Source of the DNA: a virus
Virus record (IMG/VR): IMGVR_UViG_3300034200_001099
Span: 26,096 to 90,095 of that record
DNA: 64,000 nt
Direction: 5' to 3' (one strand)
Part shown: positions 20,622 to 53,641 of the stretch, piece by piece
Layout of the letters: each line of letters opens with the position of its first letter
Position numbering within the stretch: position 1 is the stretch's first letter
The notes under the pieces: generated by a model
What the model was told of the DNA's origin: nothing
The model's database searches: none
What the model saw: only the letters and a program-made list of their open reading frames with translations
Position numbers and translations under genes: made by a program

Positions 20622-22001
20622 ATGTCTTTAAGATTTACCAACCTATTAAGGGACCTTATTGTTGAAAGTTCAAGATTTCAAGTATTGTTCGATAAATTTG
20701 TTAAACCAAAAGAAAAAGGACAAAGAGGTTTCATGCCTTTTGAAACTTTATTCGCACTTATTGTTGCCGACCCAACTACAAAAGTTCCTGAAGGAATGGA
20801 TATTGATAATGTTAAACCTGATCAAATGGAAAAGGTAAAAATTGGAAAATATGCTCAGTGGTTAATCAAAAACTTTATGACACCTAAGTTACCGGCAGAT
20901 CATCCTTTAATGGTTAGTGATCCACAATCAAGTCAATACAAACAAGCATTGACGCAATTTCAATCTCTTTTCATGGAAGATTTATATAAGGTCACAATAA
21001 ATCTTCAAAAATATGAAAGATTTAAAAATAGGTTAGCACAAGAATATAGGGATATAAATAAATTAAGTATTGAGACTTTACAAGATCAAGTCAAAGATTT
21101 TAGTTTAGAAAAAACTAAAGCAACCGCTGACGAGAAAAAAGAAGCGTCTGTAACATATGCTCACCCTGGGGCTAACATTGTTTATAGAGGTCAAGATTGG
21201 ACTGTTGCTAAAATTTCAGACAAAGGTCCATTAGGTAAAGAAGCGGCATGTTTCTATGGTGGATCTCATAATGAAGGAAGACGAGGGGAAACTACTTGGT
21301 GCACATCATCACCTGGTCTTAGTTGGTTTGATAGATACATCGGTAGAGGACCATTATATGTTGTAATTCCAAACAAAGCAAGATCATTCAAATCTTACGG
21401 AAAAGAAACAGGTGAAGTTTCAGGTTTACCAGCGGACAGATACCAATTTCACTTCCCTGATAATCAGTATATGGATGCGGATGACAGACCAATTAATTTA
21501 ATTGACTTTTTAAATACAAACGAAGAAGGTTTAAAACAATTCTTTAAGCCTGAGTTTATGTCATCATTGTCAGGTGAAAAAGGAGAAAAAGTGGCTATTG
21601 ACTATCCTAGTGATTCAGCTTCTAAATTTATTGCCTTATACGGATTTGACGAATTCTTCGCTACTTTACCACAAACATTAAAAAGATTTACATTTAAAAA
21701 CACATCAAAAGATAAACTTTCTTTAAATATTCCAAACGACATTGGTAGATTTAAAGAATTAACCGCAATTAATTTTGTTGGTTGTATTGCTTCTTTGCCT
21801 GACTCAATTTGTCAACTACAAAATTTACAATATTTATCTTTGGTTAATAATCCAGACCTTCAGATGCTACCAGATTGTATCGGAAACATGCCAAACCTTA
21901 TGGTTTTAAATCTTTCAGGGTCTGATCGTAACAAAGTTCTACCACAATCAATCTTAAGTAGAGAAGAAGAAGATGAAGATTTTAACTTATTTACACATTA
22001 A
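20622..22001 (+). CDS. protein with C-terminal leucine-rich repeats
   Basis: IPNDIGRFKELTAINF / LPDSICQLQNLQYLSL / LPDCIGNMPNLMVLNL; central TWCTS..RYQFHF domain. Confidence 0.75.
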   Translation: MSLRFTNLLRDLIVESSRFQVLFDKFVKPKEKGQRGFMPFETLFALIVADPTTKVPEGMDIDNVKPDQMEKVKIGKYAQWLIKNFMTPKLPADHPLMVSDPQSSQYKQALTQFQSLFMEDLYKVTINLQKYERFKNRLAQEYRDINKLSIETLQDQVKDFSLEKTKATADEKKEASVTYAHPGANIVYRGQDWTVAKISDKGPLGKEAACFYGGSHNEGRRGETTWCTSSPGLSWFDRYIGRGPLYVVIPNKARSFKSYGKETGEVSGLPADRYQFHFPDNQYMDADDRPINLIDFLNTNEEGLKQFFKPEFMSSLSGEKGEKVAIDYPSDSASKFIALYGFDEFFATLPQTLKRFTFKNTSKDKLSLNIPNDIGRFKELTAINFVGCIASLPDSICQLQNLQYLSLVNNPDLQMLPDCIGNMPNLMVLNLSGSDRNKVLPQSILSREEEDEDFNLFTH

Positions 22002-22047
22002 AGTAGATTATTTAAAACATTATAATATTTATTAATAAAATAAAAAT

Positions 22048-23094
22048 ATGAACAGAAGAATTTTAATATCGGAAAATGAAAGATCTAGAATTTTAGGTCT
22101 ACACGAAAATCGTAGAATGAAAGAATGGGGATTGATTAACGAACAAGTTATACCAACCGGTTATGACTCGAATGAAGCTTGTAAAGCGGAAGCTCCAAAA
22201 CTTGCTGCTAGTAAGGTATTTGCAGGACAGTCTTGGGATGTTGTTAAGGCAAAATGGGTTGAGTCTAACTGTAATGGAACAACTCCTTGTAATGTAGGAA
22301 CGGAAGCATCAAATATTAATTTAAGAAAGGCAATGTGTGAAGGAACCTTTACTATGGGTGCACCTGCGGCTGCCACACCATCAGAATATACTGTTTACAA
22401 AGGTGGAGTCCCATCTAAAATGACTGTTGATCAGATTAGTCAAGGACTTGCAGATGGTACTATAAAACCAACTGATAAAGTGTGGGACATTAGTAAAGGT
22501 CAAGGTTCTGATGCCATAGTTCCATTATCAACTTTAACTTTAGACACTAAAATACAAGCATCAATTAAAACTATTGCTCCAGAATTAGCGGGAGAAGAAA
22601 AAACATATGAAATATCTGCGGATGGTAGAGCTGCCGCAATAAAATATACAAAAGAAACATTAACAAAGGCGATCGCAGATGGCACTTTGAATAAAGATTC
22701 GGCATATGTTATTATTGTAGACCCAGCAACACAAGCAAAATCATATCAAAAAGTAATGCTTAACGCTGACTTAGTTCCAATTATTAATTCGGCTTCTGGT
22801 GCTCAACCTATAGCGGCAGAAAGAAAGTCAACCAATATTCCTGAACTTGATGCTTGGTTGAAAGGACCAATTGGATCTGCATGGGATAAACTTACAGACC
22901 CAAAACAAAAAGAAAGTATGTTTGACTCATTTGAAAAAACCGACCCAACAATTACTAAATTAAAAGATACGGTAGGTAAGGGACCATTAAGATCTGCGTT
23001 AGGAATGGCTGCTGACACAGGATTTGGTAGAGGATTACAAAGGTTAAGAGGAAAAGTTGGAGCGGCAATAACTGGTAATCAACCAGTTGCTTAA
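22048..23094 (+). CDS. leader-tagged protein with two GYF_2-like repeats
   Basis: ISENERSRILGLH leader; MTVDQISQGLADGTIKPTDKVW and YTKETLTKAIADGTLNKDSAYV. Confidence 0.65.
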   Translation: MNRRILISENERSRILGLHENRRMKEWGLINEQVIPTGYDSNEACKAEAPKLAASKVFAGQSWDVVKAKWVESNCNGTTPCNVGTEASNINLRKAMCEGTFTMGAPAAATPSEYTVYKGGVPSKMTVDQISQGLADGTIKPTDKVWDISKGQGSDAIVPLSTLTLDTKIQASIKTIAPELAGEEKTYEISADGRAAAIKYTKETLTKAIADGTLNKDSAYVIIVDPATQAKSYQKVMLNADLVPIINSASGAQPIAAERKSTNIPELDAWLKGPIGSAWDKLTDPKQKESMFDSFEKTDPTITKLKDTVGKGPLRSALGMAADTGFGRGLQRLRGKVGAAITGNQPVA

Positions 23095-23121
23095 TAATCT
23101 ATCTTATTTTTATATAAAAAA

Positions 23122-23343
23122 ATGATTATTTCAGAGCAACAAATTAGAAAAATAATTAAAAGAGTGATTTTTGAAGATAGAAAAGAATCTATGTTAGAAA
23201 AAATGAAAAGAAAATTAAAAGGAATATCCGACGATAAATTAATTTATAATATGGAAAATGAATTACCTTGGGATTGGAAAGGATCAAAAGAGGCATACTT
23301 TGAAAAACACGAAGATAGAAAATATTCAAAAGGATCAAACTAA
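23122..23343 (+). CDS. leader-tagged hypothetical protein
   Basis: MIISEQQIRKIIKRVIFE. Confidence 0.65.
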   Translation: MIISEQQIRKIIKRVIFEDRKESMLEKMKRKLKGISDDKLIYNMENELPWDWKGSKEAYFEKHEDRKYSKGSN

Positions 23344-23361
23344 TATGTGTAATAAATAATT

Positions 23362-23952
23362 ATGAAAAACAAACTATTTTTAACCGAATCTGAAAAATCA
23401 AGAATTAGTGATTTACACAGAATGGCAATTGTTACTGAAGGTAAAAACACTTTAAATGAGGCTAATTTAGTAGACATTCAAAATTTACTAATAAAAAAAG
23501 GAATGTTGGGACAAAAAGTTGCTGACAATAAATTAGGTCCATTAACTTTAAATGCGATCTATTCTGCATTAACACAAACTCAGCCAACACAAACTCAACC
23601 AACAGGGGCTCAAGGAACAGGGACTCAAGAAACAGGGACTCCAGGAACTGGAGCTCAAGTACCACCAACTCAAGGAGCGCCAGTATATTATCCTTGGGTA
23701 AAAGAAGGTGGAAAACCTGTTCAAAACATAATAGATGCTAAAAAAGCCGACCCAAATTTTCAAAATTGGTTAACTGAATTAAAAAAACTCACCACAGAAC
23801 AATTGACCAAAATTCAACAAGACCTTAAAGCGGCTTTTTTAGAATCAGCTATAGGTGTTAAATTGGATAGCACCGAGGCATATCAACCATACATGGTTGC
23901 ACTACAAACAATTAGTACTGCAATGGAAATGGTTAAAAAACCTCTGGTTTAA
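23362..23952 (+). CDS. leader-tagged protein with peptidoglycan-binding-like motif
   Basis: LTESEKSRISDLH leader; IQNLL...ADNKLGPLTLNAI; T/Q/P/G-rich linker. Confidence 0.65.
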   Translation: MKNKLFLTESEKSRISDLHRMAIVTEGKNTLNEANLVDIQNLLIKKGMLGQKVADNKLGPLTLNAIYSALTQTQPTQTQPTGAQGTGTQETGTPGTGAQVPPTQGAPVYYPWVKEGGKPVQNIIDAKKADPNFQNWLTELKKLTTEQLTKIQQDLKAAFLESAIGVKLDSTEAYQPYMVALQTISTAMEMVKKPLV

Positions 23953-24011
23953 ACAACACCAATAACACATGTGTAACCTAAATAGTGGTAATAAATCAAA
24001 CTTAAATAAGA

Positions 24012-24036
24012 ACCCTCACTTCGGTGGGGGTTTTTT
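24012..24036 (+). terminator. intrinsic terminator
   Basis: ACCCTCAC-TTCG-GTGGGGGT plus T-tract. Confidence 0.8.
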
Positions 24037-24059
24037 ATTTAACAAAGTATTTATCTTAT

Positions 24060-24617
24060 ATGAAAATAGTTATATCTGATAACCAATATAGTCTTTTAAA
24101 AGAATCAGTTGCCATTAAAAATATTGAGGGAATTAAAAATCATTGGAAAAACCAATTAAAAAAAGGTAAAAAAATTAGATTTGATAAAGAAGACTTAGAA
24201 TTTTGGGGTATTACTACCAGACAAGAAAAATTTTATGCTCAAACGGCTTTTCAGGAATTAGTCGGAGATGAGGCGTTTACTGAAAAATTCATTAAAAACT
24301 TATTAAATAAAACATTTTCAACAAAAGATTTTAACGATATAATTAATATTGGTGGTTATGATTTTGAGTGGATAATAACTGAAATGGAATATCGTGATTT
24401 TGATTTCTATTTATATGGAAAAACATTACCGGGAGGAACTGTTACTCTTATGGATGGTAGAAACTTATCTTTAGATGAAGCAACAAATGACGAAGATCTA
24501 TATTGGGAAATACAAGAAGAAGTTAATGGTGTTGTTCAAGACTGTATGGACAAAATAATTTTACCTGTTACAGGGTATGAGGTAGAAGTATCATCAATAG
24601 TAATATCGGAAGAATGA
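24060..24617 (+). CDS. leader-tagged hypothetical protein
   Basis: Start at ATG 24060 (MKIVISDNQYSLLKES), 5 nt after TATTTAT. Confidence 0.7.
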   Translation: MKIVISDNQYSLLKESVAIKNIEGIKNHWKNQLKKGKKIRFDKEDLEFWGITTRQEKFYAQTAFQELVGDEAFTEKFIKNLLNKTFSTKDFNDIINIGGYDFEWIITEMEYRDFDFYLYGKTLPGGTVTLMDGRNLSLDEATNDEDLYWEIQEEVNGVVQDCMDKIILPVTGYEVEVSSIVISEE

Positions 24618-25018
24618 AAATAATAATATCTGAACAACAATATGTAATGTTATCTGAGTCAAAATTAGATCCAATGCAAAATCTTATTAACATGGCTTTT
24701 GATGAGGTAAAAGAAAATTGTGATCGAGGTTTTTATATAAGGTCACACCACAATTACATATGTGACCCAATAGAAATGATTGAAGAAATAAAGGTGGTAG
24801 ATGTATCAAAAACAACGTCTATGGGTTACCTTGAAAAAAAAGAATTATCTCAAATGCACATTACCGTTGATATTCATCTTGAATCTATATATTTATTTTA
24901 CGATTTAGATAATTTTATTTATCAGTTACAGGGGGAAGCAAGAAACATATTAGGTGGAAGTATTGTATCTATATCAATAGGAGAAGTAATCAATATAAGA
25001 AAAGAATTTAACTGGTGA
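24614..25018 (+). CDS. leader-tagged hypothetical protein
   Basis: MKIIISEQQYVMLSES. Confidence 0.7.
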   Translation: MKIIISEQQYVMLSESKLDPMQNLINMAFDEVKENCDRGFYIRSHHNYICDPIEMIEEIKVVDVSKTTSMGYLEKKELSQMHITVDIHLESIYLFYDLDNFIYQLQGEARNILGGSIVSISIGEVINIRKEFNW

Positions 25019-25593
25019 TGAAAATTATATTAACTGAAGATCAATATAAGAATCTTTTTGAATCCAATTTTGAAAAAAACAAAAGGTTGGTGGGAAAAAT
25101 GTGGGATGAAGGTATGAACTTGGGTGAGATGTCATCGTTGATTGGTTTAGATGAATCTCAAATAATATTACTTCTTAAAGATAAAAATATAAAAATTGAT
25201 TGTAAATTTGCTGAGGATTTAGTCCTAACTCTTATGTATAGAACTGATTTTATTAATAAAAATTATAATTTCAACAATGGTCAAATGTTTCTAAACTTAA
25301 ATTGGGGAGGTTCTAGTGGGTCTGTAGCATTTGAGTTTAATGATAAGGAATATAAGTTAACAGGATGGGCAACACCTTATTGGGGTGGTGATTGTGAAAC
25401 TCCTGTTGAGGGTAATTATTTTGAAAATAAAAAAACAGATGAATATGTTAATGAATACGGGAATTCAGATAAAAAAATAGAATACACACCATCAAGTTTT
25501 AACTCAATACAGGAACTTATTGATTTTTTAAATAACGATTACCCTAAACAATTAATCAAACCAATAAAAGAATTGATTGAAGGTTATATTTAA
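25018..25593 (+). CDS. leader-tagged hypothetical protein
   Basis: MKIILTEDQYKNLFES. Confidence 0.7.
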   Translation: MKIILTEDQYKNLFESNFEKNKRLVGKMWDEGMNLGEMSSLIGLDESQIILLLKDKNIKIDCKFAEDLVLTLMYRTDFINKNYNFNNGQMFLNLNWGGSSGSVAFEFNDKEYKLTGWATPYWGGDCETPVEGNYFENKKTDEYVNEYGNSDKKIEYTPSSFNSIQELIDFLNNDYPKQLIKPIKELIEGYI

Positions 25594-25598: not shown

Positions 25599-25895
25599 AT
25601 GAAAATTATAATAACTGAAGACCAAGTGGCGTTAATAAGAAGGTTAAGTGAGTTAGAAGAAATTCTTGATAAAATTATTAAGGTATTAAATGATGATATA
25701 AACGATAGTGGTCCGGGTTATAAACCTGATAATTTTGGTGTTTATGAAAGGTGGGTGATGGATAGAGTCAAAAGAGAGTTTAAAAATGATAATCCAAAGA
25801 TTGAATTTCCAAATCACGATTTTATGATGTTAATGTCGGGACAATTTAACAATAAAATTAGAAAAGGTTTTAATAAAGTTAAAAAGAGAAGATGA
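25599..25895 (+). CDS. leader-tagged hypothetical protein
   Basis: MKIIITEDQ. Confidence 0.7.
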   Translation: MKIIITEDQVALIRRLSELEEILDKIIKVLNDDINDSGPGYKPDNFGVYERWVMDRVKREFKNDNPKIEFPNHDFMMLMSGQFNNKIRKGFNKVKKRR

Positions 25896-26479
25896 AAATA
25901 ATATTAACAGAAAGACAACAGAACTTAATAACGGAAAACTTAACAGATGAGAATCTTCGTAAGTTTTGTTATCAAATTTGGAATAAACAAAAAAAGATGG
26001 GAGAAGAGCCTAATCTTGATGATATGATTTATGATATTACGGACATAAAAAAAAATACAAGGGAAGATTACGATACTATTAGACCAATTTGGTATGAATA
26101 CAATGGAGGTTATGATAGATTATTTAAAAAACTTAAAGATGAAATTGACACTAAAGAATATAAGTTAGTTGAGGCTGAATTTGATTTGGAAACTAAAATA
26201 AAGGTTGTCCATCTTGACATTGTAGGACATTTTGTTGAAATTATGGTTGATGTTGATCCTCGTGGAACTATAGAATTTCATGGTTGGGATGAAGAAACTG
26301 AGGAAGAATACGTGGTAAACGACACAATAGACGCTGCTTATCATGAGGCGTTACTTAATTATGAAGGTGCCGATTTTCAAGGAATGATTAGAAGTTCAGT
26401 ATATGATTTATTTTATAATTTATTAGAAAAATACGGAATTCCAATTGATGTGGATATTGACTTAAAAGAAATTTATTAA
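25892..26479 (+). CDS. leader-tagged hypothetical protein, probable paralog of 24060
   Basis: MKIILTERQQNLITE; WxKQxKxG-like motif and similar acidic C-terminus. Confidence 0.7.
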   Translation: MKIILTERQQNLITENLTDENLRKFCYQIWNKQKKMGEEPNLDDMIYDITDIKKNTREDYDTIRPIWYEYNGGYDRLFKKLKDEIDTKEYKLVEAEFDLETKIKVVHLDIVGHFVEIMVDVDPRGTIEFHGWDEETEEEYVVNDTIDAAYHEALLNYEGADFQGMIRSSVYDLFYNLLEKYGIPIDVDIDLKEIY

Positions 26480-27066: not shown

Positions 27067-27603
27067 ATGAGAAAACAAATACTTGAAGAACTAAAAGAGA
27101 TGAGGTATCTTTTTAATTACGATAGAGGAAAAATTATTTCTGAACAAAATCAAAACCTTAATGAAATGATTGATTTAGAAAAAGGGTCTTTTGGTTATGA
27201 AGATATGGATGATGGTAGTGAAAAGTTTCCTTCATTTAGTCCTAATGGTGATATGGATACAGGTGAAGATTTAGCACCTTCTTTTGATTCAGATGGTAAT
27301 TTTTTAGGTATGGTAAAACCTAATCGAGATGGTATGGAAGGTGATGAGGATGAATTAGAAGAAGACGCTTTTGGTGGTGATTATAAAGATGATTTAGAAG
27401 AAGAAATTGATTTTGATGTTCCTACTATGATGCCAGGGACAAAAGAAAAAGAAAGGACAATTACAAAACCTGGAACCAAACCCGATAAGGACTCACCATA
27501 CAAACCTAAACCTGGACCAAAGAAAAACCCAAAAGCTAAAAAAGGTGATATGCCTGATTGGTTAAGTTTTGATGAACTTGGAATTAATCTTAAGCAAAAA
27601 TGA
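27067..27603 (+). CDS. acidic/Pro-Lys-rich hypothetical protein (possible virion protein)
   Basis: ILEELKEMRYLFNY leader; TATTTAT at 27046. Confidence 0.7.
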   Translation: MRKQILEELKEMRYLFNYDRGKIISEQNQNLNEMIDLEKGSFGYEDMDDGSEKFPSFSPNGDMDTGEDLAPSFDSDGNFLGMVKPNRDGMEGDEDELEEDAFGGDYKDDLEEEIDFDVPTMMPGTKEKERTITKPGTKPDKDSPYKPKPGPKKNPKAKKGDMPDWLSFDELGINLKQK

Positions 27604-28850
27604 GAAATATTAAAAAAAGACTATATACAGAAGTAATCTCAAAAAAAAATTTATTAAGGATTATGGAAGCTCCTATTGACTACGAAGGACCTGAAAGAAT
27701 GGCTGGAGATGTTGAGAGAAAAATTACGGGAAGAGAAACCCCATATCATAATTTTCCTGCAATTCCAAATATGGATAGAGACTTTATTGAGTTAATATCT
27801 TCAAAAAGATTCAAGGACTCAGTTGATAAAGTTAGAACGGCAATGGGAGATACAAGAACTATTCAAGGGGGAAACGCTCTTATGCAATTGCTGGGAACTG
27901 TGGGTCAAGCAATGCAAAAACTTGTTATGATTCAAATGAAAAACAAAAAACAACTTGAAGACCTTGCAATTGATCTTGTTAAAAACGAATTAGGAATTCC
28001 TGAAGGAGCAATGCAATTCAAAGCCGAACTTGTGTCAAGTACTATGGGAGCAGCAGAAGGGATGCAAAGTGAGCCTGAAATGCCAAGTGAAGAAGAGGTT
28101 GAAGAATTAATGGGAGATATGGAAAACTTTAATTTGGAAAGAGAAAAAAGAAGATTCATTAATTCACTTATTCAAGGTGCAGCTTTTAAAGGAGGACATA
28201 TGTATAATCTTGTTAAAAATGAGATCAATGACATTAATCCACAACTTATGAACCTATACGCTGTGACACAATCTTTAATGGAACATGCATATTGGATATT
28301 CCCTGACATGGAAGGAATGGCTGGCGGTGGCGGTGGTCAAATGGGCCAATCTGAAGTTGATGAAAAAACAGACCCACCAACAGTTAAAGCTAAGGCGGTT
28401 ACATTCCCATTATTAGTTCATGAATTGGTAAAGGGAGTATATGAGATTTTTGGATCACACGGATTACCTGACGACCCAAGACAACAAGAAATGATATTAA
28501 ACGCTGAAGATACTTTACCTTCAGAAATTTGGGACTCAAGGTTAGGTCCTATTTTTTGGGAAAAGTTTATGGCATCATATCCTATGGAGTTGTTTGATGA
28601 AGACAAAAAACATATACAGCATTATTTGTTTATGCGATTCTCGGCATTAAATGCGGAAGAGTTCATGAAGGTATCAAAAATGATTTTAAAAGGAGATCCA
28701 TTAGGTCAACAATTTATTCAAGGAATGGTCAATGAGATTGTTAAAGATCTAAAAGATAAAGACTATAAAGATGCTATGGGTTATGATGATGAAGATGATG
28801 AAGATAATGATGATTTGAGTGGGGTTGACTTTAGTGATTTGGGACTTTAA
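27600..28850 (+). CDS. hypothetical protein (possible virion protein)
   Basis: 416-aa ORF coupled to the upstream gene. Confidence 0.75.
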   Translation: MRNIKKRLYTEVISKKNLLRIMEAPIDYEGPERMAGDVERKITGRETPYHNFPAIPNMDRDFIELISSKRFKDSVDKVRTAMGDTRTIQGGNALMQLLGTVGQAMQKLVMIQMKNKKQLEDLAIDLVKNELGIPEGAMQFKAELVSSTMGAAEGMQSEPEMPSEEEVEELMGDMENFNLEREKRRFINSLIQGAAFKGGHMYNLVKNEINDINPQLMNLYAVTQSLMEHAYWIFPDMEGMAGGGGGQMGQSEVDEKTDPPTVKAKAVTFPLLVHELVKGVYEIFGSHGLPDDPRQQEMILNAEDTLPSEIWDSRLGPIFWEKFMASYPMELFDEDKKHIQHYLFMRFSALNAEEFMKVSKMILKGDPLGQQFIQGMVNEIVKDLKDKDYKDAMGYDDEDDEDNDDLSGVDFSDLGL

Positions 28851-28869
28851 TAAGTCCCATTTTTTTTTA
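28839..28869 (+). terminator. intrinsic terminator
   Basis: TGGGACTT-N-AAGTCCCA plus T-tract. Confidence 0.7.
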
Positions 28870-31906: not shown

Positions 31907-33037
31907 TTAGATATAATCATCAAACATTTCGTTTATATATTTTTGAGTTGTGGACCAATCTGGATAATCAGGGGTTGTAAAATTTATACATTCATAATCC
32001 TGATCGTAGATTAATTGTTTCATCAAAGTAGTATACCTACCAAAATGGTCTAAATATGAATCTGAATACGATTGACCTTTATTTAATTCTAAAAATAAAG
32101 TGATGTTTCCAACAAAATCTCTAATTTTAATATAATTTAAGTATGTGGTTACTTTCTTACCATCCGATTTGGTGGTTTCTTTTGGGGCCTCATCAATTTT
32201 TCCTTCAAAGTATTCATCTAAACCATTATATACTAATTCATATATTTCATTTTCATATGCAGAATTATAAGCGTTCCAATAAATATTTTTTAATTCTTGA
32301 CCTAACTCACTTAAATCATTTTCACATAGTTCGTTTATTGCGTCGGAATCTTTAATTAATTCATTTAAGTCTTCAGCTTGAATTTTAAAATAACCTTCAG
32401 TTTCTTGTTCTTCTGATAAACTTTCAAAAAAATCGGAGCTATAATCTTCTAAAGATAACTCAACATTACCAATTTCTTTAAAAATGGTATCTTTTAAATG
32501 AATGGTATTTTTTTCATTTAAATCGTCAATAACATCAGATGGTTTTGTATCATTATCAAAATACCAATCGTTACCTAAACCATCTTCGCTAAATACTCGT
32601 TTTGCAACATCTTCAGGAGAACTATCACGACGAGAGGAACCACAGAAAAAAGAAGCCAATTCATCTCTATCATTACCTAAATATAGATAGAACCCATCAG
32701 GTCTAATTTCAACATCACCTAAAATGTTGCTTGTAATATATTTAACGGTATTTTCATAGTTATATTCTAAACCATGTAGTAAATAATTGTTTTGAAACTC
32801 TTCTGGAACAGAATTATAGTCTAAATTAGCCATAATACCATTCTCAACCAAATAATCAAACAAATCATTGCTAAAATCATCGGGAGGAATCTCTCTTAAA
32901 TCAAGATCCTCTAAAAGATTGTATCTTTTTATAAGTTTAAAAAAATTTATTAATGTATTGAAATATGGTTTTATCTCATCTTCATACTCACCATCATTAA
33001 ATGATTCTATTAAATTTTTTACCCTCGCTAAACTCAT
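31907..33037 (-). CDS. acidic hypothetical protein
   Basis: Likely start MSLARVKNLIES at 33037, 5 nt after minus-strand TATTTAT. Confidence 0.7.
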   Translation of the reverse strand: MSLARVKNLIESFNDGEYEDEIKPYFNTLINFFKLIKRYNLLEDLDLREIPPDDFSNDLFDYLVENGIMANLDYNSVPEEFQNNYLLHGLEYNYENTVKYITSNILGDVEIRPDGFYLYLGNDRDELASFFCGSSRRDSSPEDVAKRVFSEDGLGNDWYFDNDTKPSDVIDDLNEKNTIHLKDTIFKEIGNVELSLEDYSSDFFESLSEEQETEGYFKIQAEDLNELIKDSDAINELCENDLSELGQELKNIYWNAYNSAYENEIYELVYNGLDEYFEGKIDEAPKETTKSDGKKVTTYLNYIKIRDFVGNITLFLELNKGQSYSDSYLDHFGRYTTLMKQLIYDQDYECINFTTPDYPDWSTTQKYINEMFDDYI

Positions 33038-33371: not shown

Positions 33372-34586
33372 ATGTCAATAAAGAAGTTTTTTAAAAATTA
33401 TATTGTAGAACAAGATGAAAACCTTGTTTCAATTTCTCCTGAGGATTATTTGGAATTATTGGAAAATGTTGGAGGAATTGCCGAAAGGATCTCAAAGTTA
33501 AAACCGTATAGAGGTAAAGGTATTGTTATTACTGGACCAATAAATGTTAGCAATTATAAAAATATTGGACCACTTACAGGTGTTGCAAGAATAATGGGCA
33601 GATTAGATATTTCTAATACCAATATTTCAAATCTTAATGGAATTACAGTCGATGGTTATGTTAGTGATTATGGATCTTCTATGTGGAAGATTAAAATGCA
33701 ACAAAAATTAAATGAAAAACTTTCAGACTTGGATGAAAAAAGAAGAGAAGATGAATGGAATGTTGAAAATCAAGACGATGAATCTGAAAGAACTGAAGCC
33801 TTATACAAATATTTAAATCAAAATGGTGATGTGGATATGGTTGAAGACGACGAAGGAAATGAAGTTCCTGAAGATAAGTATTATATCAATCCTAATGGAG
33901 GGGCAACCTATGGTTACGGAAAACAATATCAATGGTTAGGAGGAGGTAATGGGTTTAACCCCAATGAATATGATGTTTATACTGAAGATGAGGCAGATAG
34001 TGCCGCAAGACGATATGTTGAAAATTTAGTTGATGATTCAGGAATAGATGCTTTTAGTTCTTGGGCATTCAATGAAGCTTTAGATGATAAACAATGGTAT
34101 AATTGGTTATATGATTACTACGATGATTATGTTAGATCATCTCCTGAGGATTTTGATATACCTTTAGAACTATCAAATCAACAAATGAAACAAGTTCAAC
34201 AACTCCAATCAAACATAGATTCACTTAATAAAAGATTAGAAAGTGAAGATTTACCTGATGAAAAATATGAAGAAATTGAAGTAAAAATTGAAGGATTGGA
34301 AGAAATAATTCAAGAAATCAATGATGATCCACAAGGTGAATATGATGAAAGTTCAATTGAAAATGAAATTACAGGTAGAGTTGATGAATACCAAAACGAC
34401 ATTTTTGGGTTTATTGATCATTATGGTTATGATAAAGACTTTATCATGGAGTTTATTGATTTAGATAAACTAACGGAAATAGTCTTAAGTTCTGACGGAT
34501 ATGGTAGTATGTTAAATTCTTACGATGGTGATTATGACACTTTTAATATAAATGGAACTGAGTATTATGTAATGAGGGTCAATTAG
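33372..34586 (+). CDS. acidic hypothetical protein with coiled coil
   Basis: 404-aa ORF; TATTTAT 6 nt upstream; leader ends IVE. Confidence 0.75.
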   Translation: MSIKKFFKNYIVEQDENLVSISPEDYLELLENVGGIAERISKLKPYRGKGIVITGPINVSNYKNIGPLTGVARIMGRLDISNTNISNLNGITVDGYVSDYGSSMWKIKMQQKLNEKLSDLDEKRREDEWNVENQDDESERTEALYKYLNQNGDVDMVEDDEGNEVPEDKYYINPNGGATYGYGKQYQWLGGGNGFNPNEYDVYTEDEADSAARRYVENLVDDSGIDAFSSWAFNEALDDKQWYNWLYDYYDDYVRSSPEDFDIPLELSNQQMKQVQQLQSNIDSLNKRLESEDLPDEKYEEIEVKIEGLEEIIQEINDDPQGEYDESSIENEITGRVDEYQNDIFGFIDHYGYDKDFIMEFIDLDKLTEIVLSSDGYGSMLNSYDGDYDTFNINGTEYYVMRVN

Positions 34587-35571: not shown

Positions 35572-35743
35572 TAAAAGAACAATTTCTAAAAAACATATCC
35601 TTAATAATTTGGATAACATAATGAATTATCTAGACGCTGATGCGGTATTTACCACCGACGAATTTTCACTCAACGTTTATCGACTATTCAATCAAGGAAA
35701 ATCAGAAGAAGAAATATTAGAATACATAAATAATAATATATGA
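35561..35743 (+). CDS. hypothetical protein
   Basis: ORF coupled to GS gene. Confidence 0.55.
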   Translation: MGFNKRTISKKHILNNLDNIMNYLDADAVFTTDEFSLNVYRLFNQGKSEEEILEYINNNI

Positions 35744-39948: not shown

Positions 39949-40677
39949 ATGAAAAAAAATCTATTTGTAATTAATGAAAATGAGAAGGACCGTATTATAA
40001 ATATGCATAAAAACGCAACTAAAAATTTATATATACCTGAAAATAAACTATTGACAGAAGAAAGATTAATTTTGGTTAAAATACAATTACCAGATGGGAA
40101 ATATCTTGGTAGTGGACAACAAGGATATGAATATAAAATTCTTACGCTAGATAAAAAAGATACGGGATATATCGTAAAGTCTTTCACACCTTCTAGAGAA
40201 GCCGTTACAGACGATCCAGTAACAATTTCAAGTGGAATAACAACATCAAAAACTTGGGGTGTTGGGGGTGACTATTATTATGAAGCACCTATTTCTAATG
40301 TAGGATCAACTCAACAAGTAGTTGGTCAACAAGAAAAACCAACTAGATATAAAAGAGGGGCTTGTGAAACAGGAACCACTCAAGAATGCGCACATGCGAT
40401 TCAAATAAGGATGAACGAGGAATGTAAGGCCGATATTTTAAATGCCACTTTAGTTAATTTTCCTAAAGCAAGAACTGGAACAGAAGGAAACTATAAATTA
40501 AAAGAAGATAAAGTTCTTGGATCAGGAACAAAGGCAGTTATTGCCGCTTGTAATTTACCAAAATTACCAAAAGTTGGTGCCACAACCATAACATCACAAG
40601 TATCTGGATTAAACGCAACAATACCTGTTGGAGGAACTTTAACCGATAATGATATAATGACTTTAATGAATCAATAA
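39949..40677 (+). CDS. leader-tagged protein with peptidoglycan-binding-like motif
   Basis: Start ATG 39949; INENEKDRIINMH leader; AIQ...EDKVLGSGTKAVI. Confidence 0.65.
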   Translation: MKKNLFVINENEKDRIINMHKNATKNLYIPENKLLTEERLILVKIQLPDGKYLGSGQQGYEYKILTLDKKDTGYIVKSFTPSREAVTDDPVTISSGITTSKTWGVGGDYYYEAPISNVGSTQQVVGQQEKPTRYKRGACETGTTQECAHAIQIRMNEECKADILNATLVNFPKARTGTEGNYKLKEDKVLGSGTKAVIAACNLPKLPKVGATTITSQVSGLNATIPVGGTLTDNDIMTLMNQ

Positions 40678-40685: not shown

Positions 40686-41615
40686 ATGGGAAAAATAATT
40701 TTAACCGAAAGACAATATAGGAATTTGAATCAAATTTTAATTGGCAAAGAAGATGATAGCAAAAAGGGTCGAATAAATGAGGTGGCAAAAACATTTACAG
40801 ATTTTGATGGTAACAGTGCAATACTTGATAGTACTAAATTTACTCTTTCATTAAAAGCGATGGTTAATATTGAAGCATTGACAGGTGAAGACTCCAACAG
40901 GGAATTACAATTACTTTGGGGTACTGTTTTTACGAAAAAAAAAGGAAATAATACACTTTTAAGTAACTATGTTAAGGTAAATTGGGTTAGTGATTGGGTT
41001 AAGTCAATAATGAAAAGTGAAGATGGAACAGTAGAATATAAATGTGATAGTAAAAAATTTAAGTTTACTAAATATGGCAATGAATATAAGCTTGATAGTA
41101 ATTTCTCATGGATACAGAAGGCATTCGATGAATTATGTGCAATGACTGGTGTAGCCCCTGTAGTAGCCCCTGTGGTAGCAGGTGGGGAAACAGTTCCTTG
41201 GACTGCGGTCGAAAAAAAACATATAATTGCGTTCCAACGGTGGTGGTGGCATTTTGTCGAAACTGTAGACCCAGAACCTGGTACAGATGTGGAGGATGTA
41301 TGTAAAACAAAATTTAAGTCCGCGTTATGTGGAGGAAAACCTTGTATTTTGGATCAGGCCGTTGATGGAAAACTTGGAGCAAGTACACAAATATTAATGG
41401 ACAATACGGTTAATCGATCAAATTTTGAAAAATGGTGGAATACTGGCAAAAATGCGGTAGAATATAGTACGTTACCCTATAAATGTACTAGCGCTGAAAA
41501 AGGATATGTAAATCCAGATAAAAATCCAGATAAAAATCCTGTTGAAAAACCAATTGTAGGCGGTGGTGGTGGAGGTGGAGCACCATTTGGTGGTCAATAT
41601 GCTGATATGGTTTAA
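40686..41615 (+). CDS. leader-tagged protein with peptidoglycan-binding-like motif
   Basis: MGKIILTERQY; IAFQRWW...VDGKLGAST. Confidence 0.65.
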   Translation: MGKIILTERQYRNLNQILIGKEDDSKKGRINEVAKTFTDFDGNSAILDSTKFTLSLKAMVNIEALTGEDSNRELQLLWGTVFTKKKGNNTLLSNYVKVNWVSDWVKSIMKSEDGTVEYKCDSKKFKFTKYGNEYKLDSNFSWIQKAFDELCAMTGVAPVVAPVVAGGETVPWTAVEKKHIIAFQRWWWHFVETVDPEPGTDVEDVCKTKFKSALCGGKPCILDQAVDGKLGASTQILMDNTVNRSNFEKWWNTGKNAVEYSTLPYKCTSAEKGYVNPDKNPDKNPVEKPIVGGGGGGGAPFGGQYADMV

Positions 41616-43162: not shown

Positions 43163-43188
43163 ACCATAACTCCAATATATTTATAAAT

Positions 43189-44436
43189 ATGAAAATCATT
43201 ATAAGAGAATCACAACTTAATTTAATTAACGAAGCTTTAGGGGTTCCTGATAATATTTTGGATGCTGCCGATACGTTATATGATATTGTTGAAAGAGACA
43301 TCAAATCAATAAGAGACATTCAAGATGAGTATAACTTTGATGGTGAATTAGAATTTGAATTAGGTGATAAGAAAAAAATCAAAATTGATTCATATACTCT
43401 TACAGTAAAAATTGAGGAGATTGAAGATGAAGAAGGGGTCTTAGATATTGTCTCAATGGGAATGGGAGGTGCTTTTGGATTTAATAGGGATGTTTATATG
43501 AAAGAAAACGAACCTTCAACAATTTTGGGATTAACAATAACATTTGCTGTTGGTGAAAATTGGAAACCTGAAGGTCTTATTGAAAAAATGGAAGAAGACA
43601 AAGACGAACATGTTGCATCTTTAGCTCATGAAATAAAACACAAATATGATAAACAATCAAAACAATTTGGTTTAATTGGTCAAGACGCTGAATATCAAGC
43701 AACACAAAGAAGAGGTATTTTTGGAATACCGGTAATTGATAGAGTTTTTTTTAGATACTTGTATTATATTTCTGGTATTGAAAATCTTGTAAGGCCAACT
43801 GAAGTGGCTTACAAATTAAAAAGAAAAAATATTACAAAGTCACAATTCAAAGAATTTTTAGAAAATAATGTGGTTTATAAAGAACTCGTTGAAATTAAAA
43901 ACTTCACATTTGAAGACTTCATCAATCAATTAAAAGAAAGTGAAGATAGATTAGATGCTCTTATTGAACACATTGGTGATGACCCATCCGACATGACAAT
44001 AGATGAAAAAATTAATGTAGTATTAGAAGTAAGTTATATTGATTTAGTTAATAATAGAATGCAAATGTTTATGACAATGACGGAACATGGGATGGATGAT
44101 GTTATAAAATTTGGAACTCAACTTGGCATTTTACCTCCAGGGTTGGAAGGAAATTTGGAGGGAATTCAAAAGACAGATGCAATTAGACAAAAGTTTTTGA
44201 AATATGTTATGAAATACGAAAAAAATCCAACCAAATTTTTTGAAGATGAAATTGAAAACTTCCAATATGTTGCAAATAAAATGTTAAAGAAAATATCAAA
44301 ATTATATGCTATGGCAAAAGACGATGAACAAGTTAGTGAATCAATCATCAATTGGGAACTTCATCAACAAATTATGGAAAAAAAATATGGAAAAAGAAAA
44401 ATTGAAACAAAATACAAAAATTGGAATCTTAAATAA
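43189..44436 (+). CDS. leader-tagged protein with HExxH motif (putative zinc metalloprotease)
   Basis: MKIIIRESQLNLINEA; LAHEIKHKYD followed by a downstream Glu (IENLVRPTE). Confidence 0.65.
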   Translation: MKIIIRESQLNLINEALGVPDNILDAADTLYDIVERDIKSIRDIQDEYNFDGELEFELGDKKKIKIDSYTLTVKIEEIEDEEGVLDIVSMGMGGAFGFNRDVYMKENEPSTILGLTITFAVGENWKPEGLIEKMEEDKDEHVASLAHEIKHKYDKQSKQFGLIGQDAEYQATQRRGIFGIPVIDRVFFRYLYYISGIENLVRPTEVAYKLKRKNITKSQFKEFLENNVVYKELVEIKNFTFEDFINQLKESEDRLDALIEHIGDDPSDMTIDEKINVVLEVSYIDLVNNRMQMFMTMTEHGMDDVIKFGTQLGILPPGLEGNLEGIQKTDAIRQKFLKYVMKYEKNPTKFFEDEIENFQYVANKMLKKISKLYAMAKDDEQVSESIINWELHQQIMEKKYGKRKIETKYKNWNLK

Positions 44437-44594: not shown

Positions 44595-46463
44595 ATGAAG
44601 AATATATTGGTTGGACTTTTTGTCCTATTTTCATCTTTCTTATTTTCTCAATCATGTTCACATACCATACAACGAACCGACACTTGGGGCGATGGTTGGA
44701 ACGGAGGAACTGTGGCCGTTTCCGTTAATGGAGTAACCGTTTTATCTAATTTAAGTTGCGCCGGATATGGACCTACTTCTTCTACATTTTCTGCAGCAGT
44801 GGGGGCAACAATACGAGTGTACCGCACGGCATCAGGATCATATCCTTCTGAAATGCGTATACGAGTTATCAATGGAGCAGGATCTACCATAATCAATACC
44901 GTTCAACCACTTGCTGGAACCTCAACTTCAGGAGGTCATATAGTGGCGGGAAGTTGTGCATCAGTATCACCGGGACCTTGTACTAATACCTATTCGTATT
45001 TAACGGCTACAATGCCATCAACTCCCGGTTTTTTTTCAGTTGGAACATGCACTTTTCAAGGGGATTACAATACATTTAATAGTGTTGTTGCAGGTAGACA
45101 ATACAGATCAACTTATAGTTTAGGTGGTTGGATAACAGTAAGACACACAACACCAGGAGGAACTGTGGTTACTTCAGGACCTTCTCCACTAACATGGACC
45201 GCTACTATATCAGGGACTTATTACGTTCATTACAATACAAATTCAAGTTGTGGAACTGCTTCTTCTTGTGGGACAGATTATATTGAATGTTTAACTTGTA
45301 CTGCACCACCACCCCCATCAAATGATTTAGTGTGTAATTCAACATCTATTACTTGTGGTCAGTCAATATCAGGGACTACTGTAAACGCAACTAACTCTGG
45401 AACGGGTGAAGGTGGATTTTGTTCTGTTAGTCAAACACAACCCGGTGTTTGGTATGTTATTCCAGGAAACGGACAAATTATGACGGCAAATCTTTGTGCT
45501 ACCGCATGGGATAGTAAAATGTCTGTATTTTCAGGGGTAGGGTGCGGAAGTCTAACTTGTGTAGGGGGTAATGATGATTTTGGTCCTGCTTGTGGTAGTT
45601 CATCAGCCTCATATTCATGGTCTTCTGTGGTTGGAACAAATTACTATATATTAGTTCATGGGTATAGTACAAGTAGTAGTTTTTCTATTAATGTAAATTG
45701 TGTTGCCCCTCCAACACCAGGCCCATGCATTAATACTATTTCGTATGGAACACAAAGTTTACCTGTATTTGGTGGAATATCATACACTACCGTACCTTGT
45801 CAGTTTGCTGGTGAATACTCAACTTGGAGTGGAGCCGTGGTAGGAACACCATATATTGCTATGACTACGGTTGCAACTGATTGGATAACAGTAAGAAGTG
45901 GAGCATATAATGGAACTGTTGTTGCTGTTGGATTAGGACCATTATCCTTTACTCCGACAAACAATAATACCTTATACATACACGTTAATACAAACTCACT
46001 ATGTGGAACAGTAAGTGTATGTAGAGATGTTTCTGTAACTAGAATGTCTGCATTACCTATTGAATTGTTATCGTTTGAAGGTAAGAAACAAGTTAACTCA
46101 AATATGTTATATTGGTCAACAGCGTCTGAACATAATAGTAGTCACTTTATTATTGAAAAGAGTGTGGATGGTTTTAAATGGAGTGATATTGGACAAGTAC
46201 AATCTGCTGGTAACTCAACTCAAAAAATAGATTATAGTTTAGAAGATAAAGATGTATCTCAAGTTATCAACTACTACAGATTACATCAATACGATATAGA
46301 TGGTGTGGATGAGGTATTTGGACCAATAGCGATCAACAATAGAGATAGAATAAACATCATTGCTAAGAGAATTAATTTAGCGGGTCAAGAGGTTAATGAG
46401 AATGCAACCGGAATAATTATAGAAATTTATGAGGACGGAAGTATAAAAAGAATTATAAGGTAA
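44595..46463 (+). CDS. Flavobacteriia-type secreted Cys/Ser/Thr-rich protein with T9SS-like C-terminus
   Basis: Signal peptide from ATG 44595; DTWGDGWNGG; duplicated PGPC...WITVR module; LPIELLSFEG...NYYRL.Q.D.DG; NLAGQEV...IYEDG. Confidence 0.75.
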   Translation: MKNILVGLFVLFSSFLFSQSCSHTIQRTDTWGDGWNGGTVAVSVNGVTVLSNLSCAGYGPTSSTFSAAVGATIRVYRTASGSYPSEMRIRVINGAGSTIINTVQPLAGTSTSGGHIVAGSCASVSPGPCTNTYSYLTATMPSTPGFFSVGTCTFQGDYNTFNSVVAGRQYRSTYSLGGWITVRHTTPGGTVVTSGPSPLTWTATISGTYYVHYNTNSSCGTASSCGTDYIECLTCTAPPPPSNDLVCNSTSITCGQSISGTTVNATNSGTGEGGFCSVSQTQPGVWYVIPGNGQIMTANLCATAWDSKMSVFSGVGCGSLTCVGGNDDFGPACGSSSASYSWSSVVGTNYYILVHGYSTSSSFSINVNCVAPPTPGPCINTISYGTQSLPVFGGISYTTVPCQFAGEYSTWSGAVVGTPYIAMTTVATDWITVRSGAYNGTVVAVGLGPLSFTPTNNNTLYIHVNTNSLCGTVSVCRDVSVTRMSALPIELLSFEGKKQVNSNMLYWSTASEHNSSHFIIEKSVDGFKWSDIGQVQSAGNSTQKIDYSLEDKDVSQVINYYRLHQYDIDGVDEVFGPIAINNRDRINIIAKRINLAGQEVNENATGIIIEIYEDGSIKRIIR

Positions 46464-52398: not shown

Positions 52399-52410
52399 TA
52401 TTTATAGAAT

Positions 52411-52929
52411 ATGAAAACATTAATAGAAAGAATTGTCAGAGAATATCTTTTGGAGGAAAGAAAATTTCCTAAACAAAAAGGTAGTGAAGTCTATGATAAA
52501 ATGTTATATAATATAATATCCACATACCATCAGTGGTTTGATCGACATGGGGATAATTCGTATAAGGAAAATATTGATTTGTTTTATGAAAAAAATAATT
52601 CAGATAACGATTATAGGATTGGTGTTAGTGATAAGTTATTGATACCGATAATTAAAAAAGATATTGGTAAGATTATTGATAGCTTTAAAACGCACAATCC
52701 TTGTAATAAAAGAATCATATTTACAAAAAGAATGGTTAATAATGAAGATGAGGAATACTTTGATGTTATTGAATTTCTCATACAAAAAGATAGTAATGAA
52801 TTAAAAATTGTTAGTTCTGCTTTTTCTGATGACGGTAACTTTTTATATTTTGGTGTTAGACCAAGAAGTAAAAAAGAAAATTTAAAAGAAAATTCATGTA
52901 AAAGTGGGGATATAGTTGTGGAATTGTAA
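52411..52929 (+). CDS. leader-tagged protein, possible BECR-fold ribonuclease
   Basis: Leader ...YLLEE; HQWFDRHG and terminal strands IIFTKR..IEFLIQ..LKIVSSAF. Confidence 0.5.
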   Translation: MKTLIERIVREYLLEERKFPKQKGSEVYDKMLYNIISTYHQWFDRHGDNSYKENIDLFYEKNNSDNDYRIGVSDKLLIPIIKKDIGKIIDSFKTHNPCNKRIIFTKRMVNNEDEEYFDVIEFLIQKDSNELKIVSSAFSDDGNFLYFGVRPRSKKENLKENSCKSGDIVVEL

Positions 52930-52949
52930 AAAAGTATTATCTTTGTAAG

Positions 52950-53080
52950 ACAATTGATTGTTATTGGTTCAATCATTAAAAAATACCAATCGTAGGGTGT
53001 CTGGCGTAATCCGACACAGGTTGAAAATCCCACCCCTAGGTGAAATTGATCCCCACTGAAATATGTGGGGATTTTTTTTT
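52950..53080 (+). ncRNA. candidate structured RNA with its own TATCTTTG promoter and terminator
   Basis: Promoter 52938-52945; TGATTG/CAATCA stem with ATTGGT/ACCAAT pseudoknot; GTGTC/GACAC stem; ATCCCCAC/GTGGGGAT plus T9; no ORF. Confidence 0.55.
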
Positions 53081-53139
53081 AAGAGACCCCATCTTAATTG
53101 ATGGGCTTTAGGGCCGTTATCCGTTAGGGTAACGATTTA

Positions 53140-53171
53140 AAGGGGGGAATTCGCTACTCCCCCTTTTTTTT
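53140..53171 (+). terminator. intrinsic terminator-like hairpin
   Basis: GGGGGA-N-TCCCCC plus T-tract. Confidence 0.65.
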
Positions 53172-53194
53172 ATTTAACTAAGTATTTATCATAT

Positions 53195-53641
53195 ATGAAA
53201 ATAATAATTTCAGAACGTCAACAAAAGTTAATTAAAGAAAATTCTGTTAAGGGATCTTTAATTGATATGATTAAAGAAGATGGTTGGAAAAGTGTTTACG
53301 GATTGGTTGGGGGGATTGATAATCTTAAAAAACTTGTTGGAATTGAATCACCAATAGATTTTCTTAATTTATTTAATGATTTGGATGTTATTAATAGTGA
53401 AGAAAAACCTAATTTGACTTTATTTAGATATGAAATAGGAAATAATCTAATGGTTTACGATGATGAATTTGATTTTGTTTACATCAATTATAGTATAATT
53501 TGGTCATTTTTAGAAAAAGTTTTTGGATTTAACTACTCTGAAATACAGGAAGTCACACAGGAATGGTTGTCTGAGGCCTACGATTTAAGGGGAGTCACAA
53601 CAGATGAGGTAGATGAGGAGGATGATGAGTTGGTTGGATGA
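53195..53641 (+). CDS. leader-tagged protein, probable distant paralog of 47127 domain
   Basis: MKIIISERQQKLIKE; YINY...G...E....QEW motif. Confidence 0.7.
   Translation: MKIIISERQQKLIKENSVKGSLIDMIKEDGWKSVYGLVGGIDNLKKLVGIESPIDFLNLFNDLDVINSEEKPNLTLFRYEIGNNLMVYDDEFDFVYINYSIIWSFLEKVFGFNYSEIQEVTQEWLSEAYDLRGVTTDEVDEEDDELVG

Follow-up and report, generated by a model that had tools for sequence, protein, structure and literature searches.

A shared N-terminal leader ending in (I/L)xE: a candidate prohead-targeting sequence of a T4-related jumbo phage

The 64,000-nucleotide stretch of viral DNA studied here (the window; 26096-90095 in an IMG/VR virus record that is 90,095 bp long and has a G+C content of about 30%) encodes a set of proteins that begin with one and the same short peptide and continue into mostly unrelated bodies. 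That such a leader is shared by many proteins was confirmed in the present analysis, and we propose that the leader, MKIIITExQ..(L/I)xE, is probably a prohead-targeting and processing sequence of a T4-related jumbo phage, as judged from sequence comparison and from analogy with bacteriophage T4. In such a system the leader would dock newly made proteins on the scaffolding core during head assembly, a gp21-type protease would then cleave on the C-terminal side of the Glu in (I/L)xE, which is residue 15 or 16 in most cases, and what is left of the protein would remain in the DNA-filled head, from which it could enter the host together with the DNA. Docking, cleavage, virion residence, injection and an effector role of the bodies are the steps that we infer. 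A T4-style packaging tag had been suggested in an earlier, sequence-only reading of this DNA, and that suggestion is strengthened here by the modular nature of the tag, by a gp21-type protease in relatives, by a boundary at the Glu and by the patterns of promoters and gene turnover, with the reservation that the letters of the leader are unlike those of the T4 sequence.

Results

Occurrence of the leader

The record that holds the window (G000) is about 31% complete as estimated by CheckV, and is a fragment of a jumbo phage of some 300 kb that is T4-related by its relatives; a terminal repeat was not found in the 90,095 bp. Because the structural-region proteins of this record gave no PHROG family, we examined relatives, among them G001 (304 kb, 100% complete) and G002 (272 kb, 93% complete), the latter being colinear with the window at protein identities of 50-85%. 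Window genes are denoted below by the first base of their start codon, with (-) for the minus strand, and the sign ↓ marks the position directly after the Glu.

Six-frame translation of the whole record, with stop-to-stop frames of at least 50 codons searched for the strict motif KI[IV][IL][STR][ED].Q, gave eight matches, each of them on the plus strand and located at a start codon (window open reading frames (ORFs) 24060, 24614, 25018, 25599, 25892, 40686, 43189 and 53195). These were the eight ORFs that the sequence-only reading had named as beginning with MKI(I/V)(I/L)(S/T/R)(E/D)xQ, which seven of them do, the eighth, 40686, starting MGKIILTERQ; the variant that it had placed at 23122 (MIISEQQ...) is a weak one, at 11 bits by a hidden Markov model (HMM) of the leader. 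At the DNA level, a degenerate pattern of the motif was found seven times in the window, always at an ORF start, with 0.00 expected from 100 shuffles. The codons used vary between the copies (ATA/ATT/ATC; TCT/TCA/ACT/ACA/ACC/AGA; GAA/GAT), so the conservation is one of peptide rather than of DNA. When applied to the three genomes G000, G001 and G002, the leader HMM scored 9-33 bits at start codons only and at most 4.3 bits at internal positions, the genome-wide check of N-termini that had been called for thereby agreeing with the notion of a modular tag that is strictly N-terminal and sits on mostly unrelated bodies.

At least 120 IMG/VR stretches contain the pattern of this leader (class A; further classes, B to F, are described below), and relatives of a single bearer, the 415-aa protein of 43189, were found at 74 viral-contig loci. 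A sample of 120 viral-contig loci contained 145 pattern matches, of which 121 stood at the start of ORFs with 60 codons or more, 8 belonged to shorter ones and 16 ran off the locus; the distinct proteins obtained numbered 115, with lengths of 65-518 aa, and formed 55 body clusters. Position 13 was L or I in 107 of these 115, and (I/L)xE had its Glu at residue 15 in 44 proteins and at 16 in another 21, with about two per position further downstream; altogether 80/115 had (I/L)xE within residues 13-20, and the residue following the Glu was mostly S, D, N or A. E7, Q9, L/I13 and E15/16 were kept across the 55 body clusters. Among the eight strict-motif proteins of the window, (I/L)xE occupied residues 13-15 and was followed by S, N or A in six, and in 25599 the corresponding LSE was at residues 16-18.

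AlphaFold models of 43189 and 25892, built with alignments, placed the leader outside the fold of the body and unpacked. The mean predicted local distance difference test (pLDDT) score was 75 for 43189, with residues 1-17 below 50, and 87 for 25892, with 53 for residues 1-10, 68 for residues 11-20 and about 90 for the body.

We regard it as extremely unlikely that the leader serves for recognition by a modifying enzyme, as is the case with radical-SAM enzymes and ribosomally synthesized and post-translationally modified peptides, or as a secretion signal. The Radical_SAM family (PF04055) was absent from all five records searched, including those that are 100% and 93% complete, with 14/14 control genomes positive, and we rejected a radical-SAM tag on this basis. 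As to secretion, the hydrophobic part of the leader amounts to only three to four residues, after which charged ones come, and this sets it apart from the true signal peptides encoded at 44595 and 39395.

The glutamate of (I/L)xE as a module boundary

The strongest new evidence came from alignments in which the Glu of (I/L)xE appears to be a conserved boundary between modules. The body of 25018, from just before LFE↓S, matches residues 102-282 of a 286-aa protein of G002 with 52% identity; 25018 reads MKILTEDQYKNLFE↓SNFEKN, and the G002 protein has, internally, ...LEKNINE↓STFDKN. A 10-residue leader in one phage thus replaces about 100 residues in the other, with the joint at (I/L)xE↓S. The same body also matches a 278-aa protein of G001 that has ...ETLNE↓SQ.

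Further cases were of similar kind. Within G001, the proteins of 72090 (class A, ...ILIE↓NQKYVDSLLDKIS) and 48611 (class B, ...RVINE↓NQEEVDRILDKIS) have a common body directly after the Glu, and the body of 53195 clusters with G001 proteins having class C/D leaders (MKELIRHIIKE↓E...), with the alignment running from the Glu onward. The protein of 27600 (...LRIME↓APIDY) has a G001 homolog, at 26% identity, reading ...LIRKIIKE↓APIDYGDYPERM, and the gene for that homolog is located in the head module, adjoining the large terminase gene. In the 25892 family some homologs are shorter by four leader residues, and (I/L)xE still ends at residue 15.

Head protease and capsid protein in relatives

It had been proposed that a gp21-like protease be sought. 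We searched 14 relatives in all, comprising ten of the largest leader-bearing IMG/VR records and others, with G001 and G002 included, and found Peptidase_S77 (gp21-type) in nine of them, and in 7/7 of the leader-bearing records that are at least 90% complete; the five relatives having no Peptidase_S77 match are 46-71% complete. Both G001 and G002 contain a head module in T4 order, with portal, small proteins, S77 protease, acidic scaffold and gp23-like capsid protein, and their proteases scored 80-81 bits against a Peptidase_S77 cut-off of 27; in G002 the protease gene is at 184046..184774 (minus strand) and that of the scaffold at 182170..183693. The protease of this clade aligns with T4 gp21 through the blocks NRNxRxYP, ELNHP and SSRG, which include the conserved His and Ser blocks. 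One other record, that of locus L167 (G009; 269 kb, 100% complete), had two Peptidase_S77 matches, at 31291-31773 and 233494-233940 with 103 and 83 bits, which brings to mind the diverged prohead-protease paralog that has reportedly been found in SPN3US.

Using tblastn, the capsid protein was found to match 1759 phage records, and the named phages among the matches listed are T4-type. In G001 and G002 it reads ...ENQASFLINE↓ASSDG before a conserved VRR..(I/V)..VQ.MN block, and T4 gp23, which we take to be cut at FLTE↓A, reads ...GSFLTE↓AEIGG. The leader of 43189, ...NLINE↓ALGVP, has the same form of site as the capsid protein. The closest named phage, as judged by capsid protein, is Microcystis phage Mel-JY01 (locus L232), in which the capsid protein (19956-21584) has ..QLISE↓A at the matching place; no class A leader was found among 24 coding sequences examined around its head module.

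Proteins of leader type, beginning MNNLNRIIKKVIKE↓T, MNKLDQIIKKVIKE↓S and MKTDLVSRVVKRVLRE↓T, are encoded directly beside the major capsid gene. These capsid-adjacent genes are found at 177477-179209 in G002 (177477 and 178439) and at 141536-144379 in G001.

A promoter-like box and rapid turnover of leader genes

The leader genes of the window were said to stand directly behind a TATTTAT motif or in a run of genes behind one. The offsets that we determined (Table 1) agree with this, as do the gaps of -4 to 27 nt in the tight runs behind a TATTTAT box that hold the remaining leader genes. Throughout G000, G001 and G002, the distance of TATTTAT from start codons has peaks at -11..-14 and at -20..-25, and the box precedes the genes of the protease, terminase, scaffold and several tail proteins, and in G002 that of the portal as well. 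The association of TATTTAT with leader genes that had been put forward for testing was found: at -20..-9, it precedes 17/35 leader genes versus 98/829 others (Fisher p = 2.4e-7, where this test and those given below overstate independence because the three genomes are related). Should TATTTAT be a -10-like box, many of the mRNAs would be leaderless, or nearly so.

At two places in the window, 24010-24086 and 53145-53221, a terminator hairpin, a T-run, a TTTAAC.AAGTATTTAT box and the first codons are near-identical over about 45 nt. This extended promoter-leader cassette was present just twice in G000 and was absent from G001 and G002, and it is therefore no general recombination handle.

A box located 11-14 nt before the ATG, implying very short or absent 5' leaders, together with the near-identity of the terminator-promoter-start cassettes of 24060 and 53195, would suit a device that acts on RNA or DNA, being either an A/U-rich start region from which late, leaderless mRNAs are translated or a stretch of microhomology that serves the recombinational shuffling of genes behind a promoter and start already in place, with a peptide that has no function of its own. 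We hold such a device to be very unlikely: synonymous codons vary and residues are fixed, the promoterless operon genes 24614, 25018, 25599 and 25892 retain the peptide, other genes having TATTTAT at -11..-14 start differently (e.g. MAYIIKNTSG or MVEDCYILY), the constant residues of the leader extend over all 55 body clusters of the viral-contig sample, and the long cassette is present just twice.

Turnover was faster for leader genes than for the remaining genes. A body homolog in G002 was found for 11/54 leader genes of G001 versus 164/300 of its other genes (p = 2e-6), and in the opposite direction for 10/34 versus 165/264 (p = 2.4e-4). With the record of the window, homologs were kept for 5/10 versus 76/101 and for 4/10 versus 71/101, a difference that is not significant.

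Leader classes and their scale

In addition to class A, with the consensus MKIIITExQ, we distinguished class B (MKKVIRLTESDLTRIVKRVINE), class C (MKELIRHILKE), class D (MNLQEQIRRILRE), class E (hhh(S/T)E(S/N)EKxRI..H; 22048, 23362 and 39949 in the window) and class F (..EIxRIxxhMG). Outside class A, (I/L)xE ends at residues 9, 11 and 13 in 40, 36 and 30 proteins, respectively, compared with about 12 per position, or roughly three times background. By these patterns 10/124 genes in G000, 34/338 in G002 and 54/405 (about 13%) in G001 are leader genes. Class A alone has eight bearers by pattern in the 31% fragment (9-10 with weak variants) and 13-16 in the complete relatives, which have four or five leader classes besides.

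Long arrays composed almost wholly of leader genes of mixed class (A, B and C) were seen in G001 at 59979-74013 and 109452-111383, with like arrays in G002 at 234152-238341 and 246896-249637; they are far larger than the five-gene array of the window.

As a tentative extension of the packaging proposal, which we would not give even chances, the approximately six leader classes could together form an address code that routes about one-eighth of the genes (54/405 in G001) into the assembling head. New cargo would then be recruited by a swap or graft of leader at the (I/L)xE site of the protease, and the class could determine how many copies are loaded, where in the head they lie or in what order they are released.

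The bodies of the leader proteins

Comparing 20 candidate proteins with each other by BLASTP, we found similarity that was mostly limited to the leader. The few weak longer alignments (25018/40686 at E 4e-6, 25892/43189 at 5e-4 and 24060/25018 at 1e-3) were obtained with a tiny database and with composition correction off. The proteins of 24060 and 25892 fell into one body cluster, as distant paralogs with 17% identity to each other. The assertion that the bodies are unrelated hence holds for most of them, with this pair of paralogs and the few weak longer alignments to be excepted. When 98 leader proteins of the three genomes were clustered by body, 70 clusters resulted, of which 55 were singletons and six carried more than one leader class; the lengths ranged from 65 to 1018 aa.

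If all these proteins were one diverged paralog family, the leader would be the best-kept part of an ancestral N-terminal domain. The clustering of 24060 with 25892 and the longer alignments would agree with such an origin, as would an LIRR subgroup in which similarity extends to about residue 25. We nonetheless judge it quite unlikely in view of the number of clusters and singletons (70 and 55 from 98 proteins, and 55 clusters from the 115 proteins of the viral-contig sample), the spread of lengths, the finding of one body with different leader classes, and the AlphaFold models that leave the leader outside the fold.

Functional assignment of the bodies gave little. With Pfam and PHROGs, the window candidates yielded a sub-threshold leucine-rich repeat (LRR) match in 20622 and two weak matches at chance level; labels given earlier as 'PG-binding-like' and 'RNase' had no Pfam or PHROG support, and the LRR match of 20622 had 27.5 bits for LRR_14 versus a Pfam cut-off of 40. 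None of 10 large leader proteins of G001 and G002 exceeded the Pfam cut-off, with one weak DHH match among them. The HExxH that had been noted in 43189 proved to be invariant in 27 homologs, and over these 27 sequences, down to 41% identity, the residues I5, Q9, E15, G18, V19, P20, H147, E148 and H151 are all invariant. Foldseek searches of PDB gave nothing at E <= 0.001 for the 43189 model and no accepted match for that of 25892, for which the best match, chimallin (E 0.02, TM score 0.27), was too weak and was rejected as its fold. In BFVD, the 25892 model matched only uncharacterised proteins of uncultured phages; the 25892 family has 387 homolog clusters in metagenomes.

Leader genes of the window

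The leader genes and the TATTTAT boxes with determined coordinates are given in Table 1.

Table 1. Positions of leader genes and of TATTTAT boxes in the window (offsets of TATTTAT are relative to the start codon)
Position	Strand	Feature	Basis and context
20622..22001	+	Loose leader MSLRFTNLLRDLIVE↓S; 459 aa; C-terminal LRR-like region	TATTTAT at -21
22048..23094	+	Class E leader MNRRILISENERSRILGLHE; 348 aa	Class pattern; TATTTAT at -22
23122..23343	+	Weak hybrid leader MIISEQQIRKIIKRVIFE↓D; 73 aa	HMM, 11 bits; 27-nt gap, in run behind 22048
23362..23952	+	Class E leader MKNKLFLTESEKSRISDLH; 196 aa	Class pattern; 18-nt gap to preceding gene
24048-24054	+	TATTTAT box	12 nt before ATG of 24060, right after terminator hairpin
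24060..24617	+	Class A leader MKIVISDNQYSLLKE↓S; 185 aa; first gene of array	Strict motif, HMM; TATTTAT at -12
24614..25018	+	Class A leader MKIIISEQQYVMLSE↓S; 134 aa	Strict motif, HMM; 4-nt overlap with 24060
25018..25593	+	Class A leader MKIILTEDQYKNLFE↓S; 191 aa	Strict motif, HMM
25599..25895	+	Class A leader MKIIITEDQVALIRRLSE↓LEE; 98 aa	Strict motif, HMM; G002 ortholog 61% identical
25892..26479	+	Class A leader MKIILTERQQNLITE↓N; 195 aa	Strict motif
27067..27603	+	Class F-like start MRKQILEELKEMRYLFNYDRGKIISEQ; 178-aa acidic protein	TATTTAT at -21; missed by class regular expression
27600..28850	+	...NLLRIME↓APIDYEGPERM; 416 aa; last gene before terminator	G001 homolog
31907..33037	-	Loose start MSLARVKNLIE↓S; 376 aa; doubtful member	TATTTAT at -12
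33372..34586	+	Loose leader MSIKKFFKNYIVE↓Q; 404-aa acidic protein	TATTTAT at -13
39949..40677	+	Class E leader MKKNLFVINENEKDRIINMH; 242 aa	TATTTAT at -19
40686..41615	+	Class A variant MGKIILTERQYRNLNQ; 309 aa	Strict motif, HMM 15-21 bits; 8 nt behind 39949..40677
43178-43184		TATTTAT box
43189..44436	+	Class A leader MKIIIRESQLNLINE↓ALGVP; 415 aa; HExxH	Strict motif; TATTTAT at -11
52399-52405		TATTTAT box
52411..52929	+	Loose leader MKTLIERIVREYLLE↓E; 172 aa	TATTTAT at -12; G002 ortholog (75%) keeps YLFE↓T
53183-53189		TATTTAT box
53195..53641	+	Class A leader MKIIISERQQKLIKE↓N; 148 aa	Strict motif; TATTTAT at -12

Looser leaders ending in (I/L)xE had been proposed for 20622, 33037(-), 33372 and 52411. 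Three of these fit. The G002 ortholog of 20622, with 85% identity, has the same leader, and its G001 homolog begins MKLVKILSSVIVE↓N; that of 33372 starts MKNFIKNFLLE↓Q in G002, and a G001 homolog with 22% identity over 323 aa carries a class B leader. The site of 33037(-), on the other hand, is not conserved, its Glu being Asp in G002 and the site as such being absent in G001.

Conservation of 27067 in G002 is limited to the first 38 residues, and the similarity of 39949 to a G001 protein is likewise confined to the leader. No body homolog in G001 or G002 was found for 24614 or for 22048, and the latter also had no Pfam or PHROG family. A terminator-like hairpin at 28840-28859 marks the end of 27600.

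The remainder of the window codes for an SbcC-like nuclease, a sigma factor, an RNA ligase, an ATPase and a phosphoesterase, together with many ORFans. The leader had been expected to be rarer among metabolic genes, and no recognisable metabolic gene of the window bears it. A 373-aa protein encoded at 35740-36861, which presumably is a glutamine-synthetase-type enzyme by resemblance, begins MKIKLEYIWLDGY, which comes close to the leader pattern without belonging to it; the protein has about 72% identity to proteins of G001 and G002. Upstream of the window, the record carries large tail-type genes that lack a PHROG family, and PHROGs gave no family for eight large structural-region proteins from there, for the window ORF 55479..57233 (584 aa) or for 27600. 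At 44595-46463, the window encodes a 622-aa protein with a signal peptide and Cys/Thr/Gly-rich repeats, in a longer ORF without a Pfam match. We take the C-terminal stretch of this protein to resemble a type IX secretion sorting domain of Bacteroidota, a likeness that hints at a Bacteroidota host. Megablast with 6 kb of the window gave no match.

Discussion

That the leader identified here is a prohead-targeting and processing sequence is, in our view, the probable explanation of its strict N-terminal position, of the module boundary that appears to lie at its Glu and of its company of head genes in the relatives. Several observations nevertheless weigh against it. The 90-kb record itself gave no Peptidase_S77 match and holds no capsid gene, being only some 31% complete, so that the link to head proteins rests on the relatives, and as a Peptidase_S77 is present in every T4-like phage, its co-occurrence with the leader does not discriminate. 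Searching GenBank phages by tblastn with 43189, 53195 and 27600 gave uncultured huge-phage records or nothing, with no cultured match, and no virion proteome of the clade was found. With regard to the site, 40686 has no (I/L)xE near residue 15, and none was present at residues 13-20 in 35/115 class A proteins of the viral-contig sample or at residues 10-25 in 18/44 class A proteins of the three genomes. The leader has only the MK and the terminal hydrophobic-x-E in common with the T4 sequences MKTYQEFIAE and MKTFKEF..TITE. The leader bodies are acidic, with a median isoelectric point of 5.07 versus 5.60 for other proteins; T4 IPII and IPIII are basic. TATTTAT, which from its position may be a late promoter, is also found before genes that are not structural in appearance, and its statistics suffer from the relatedness of the genomes mentioned above. 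Class patterns A-F were made by hand and post hoc, using crude gene calls, and if all six classes were cargo, the list of packaged genes would be a very long one, at 54/405 in G001.

Some of these points would also be expected if the leader were a docking peptide for some other partner, such as a phage chaperone, a host hub or a regulatory protease, with (I/L)xE forming part of a binding helix that is never cut. A short, disordered and conserved N-terminal peptide on unrelated proteins suits any model with a shared partner, and the acidic bodies and the roughly one-third of leaders without a well-placed (I/L)xE could be accommodated in the same way. We consider this alternative rather unlikely, however, as homologs that differ upstream of the Glu have their boundary precisely at that residue, the capsid protein has a propeptide site of the same form, the promoter box is common to tagged and virion genes, and leader-type genes lie within the head module by the capsid gene (G002 177477 and 178439).

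Proteins injected together with the DNA are the first move of a phage against host defences, and to our knowledge the loaded proteins and their mode of loading are almost unknown outside T4 and the phiKZ group. If the leader serves to load proteins, one could read from sequence what the virions of an abundant clade of uncultured phages of about 300 kb probably carry, and dozens of uncharacterised proteins would become candidates for early-acting or anti-defence factors, with grafting at the (I/L)xE site as a suggested rule by which new cargo is recruited. Should the multi-class code also be true, the capsid would be a programmable carrier of many proteins on a scale that is undescribed for T4-like phages. 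In the literature that we searched, we found neither this leader nor an expanded set of leaders described for a T4-like jumbo phage. We find the interest of the system mainly in its wide spread, its large scale and its direct testability.

Several known systems can be compared with the one proposed here. With regard to T4-type phages, small and fast-changing gene arrays behind repeated promoter elements are known as hyperplastic regions or mobile regulatory cassettes. The two cassettes of the window, at 24060 and 53195, share some 45 nt of terminator, promoter and start and are similar to these; they differ in that the repeated element here runs on into a peptide conserved at the protein level.

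Giant phages of the phiKZ group offer a second parallel. Propeptides of head and ejection proteins in phiKZ, 201phi2-1 and SPN3US are cut by S80 proteases at (S/A/G)-x-E. Many head proteins of these phages are cut after Glu in a short motif, and paralogs in giant phages may have an identical N-terminal 15-mer with cut sites (PMC5694885). As described there, tens of different proteins are loaded into the head and many of them are trimmed after Glu (PMC5694885), much as we propose here. The differences lie in the S80 protease, in another motif and in there being no single leader on dozens of unrelated proteins, and the present system, with its S77 protease, is nearer to T4.

The closest likeness is to the capsid targeting sequence (CTS) of T4, carried by IPI, IPII, IPIII and Alt and processed by gp21. 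According to PMC5694885, this sequence is used by all T4 internal head proteins, and Alt is cut at ITE-6 and LTE-619. In both systems a short N-terminal MK...(I/L)xE (MKTYQEFIAE↓A and MKTFKEF..TITE↓A in T4) is found on otherwise unrelated proteins, in a lineage whose head genes include a gp21-type protease, an acidic scaffold like gp22 and a capsid protein like gp23, and the genes that carry the tag form a diverse set that varies from one relative to the next, as is documented on the T4 side (PMC3012670). The leader described here is longer than the CTS, extending over some 15-16 residues, of which E7, Q9 and L/I13 are fixed; many of its members lack a well-placed cut site, its bodies are mostly acidic, and it is known from sequence alone. 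Its bearers are far more numerous than the handful of T4 and fall into several classes. We would therefore suggest that the tag works like the T4 targeting sequence, and claim no homology of the tag itself. The T4-style system is known; what appears to be new here is the sequence of the tag, its length, the number of its bearers and the existence of several classes.

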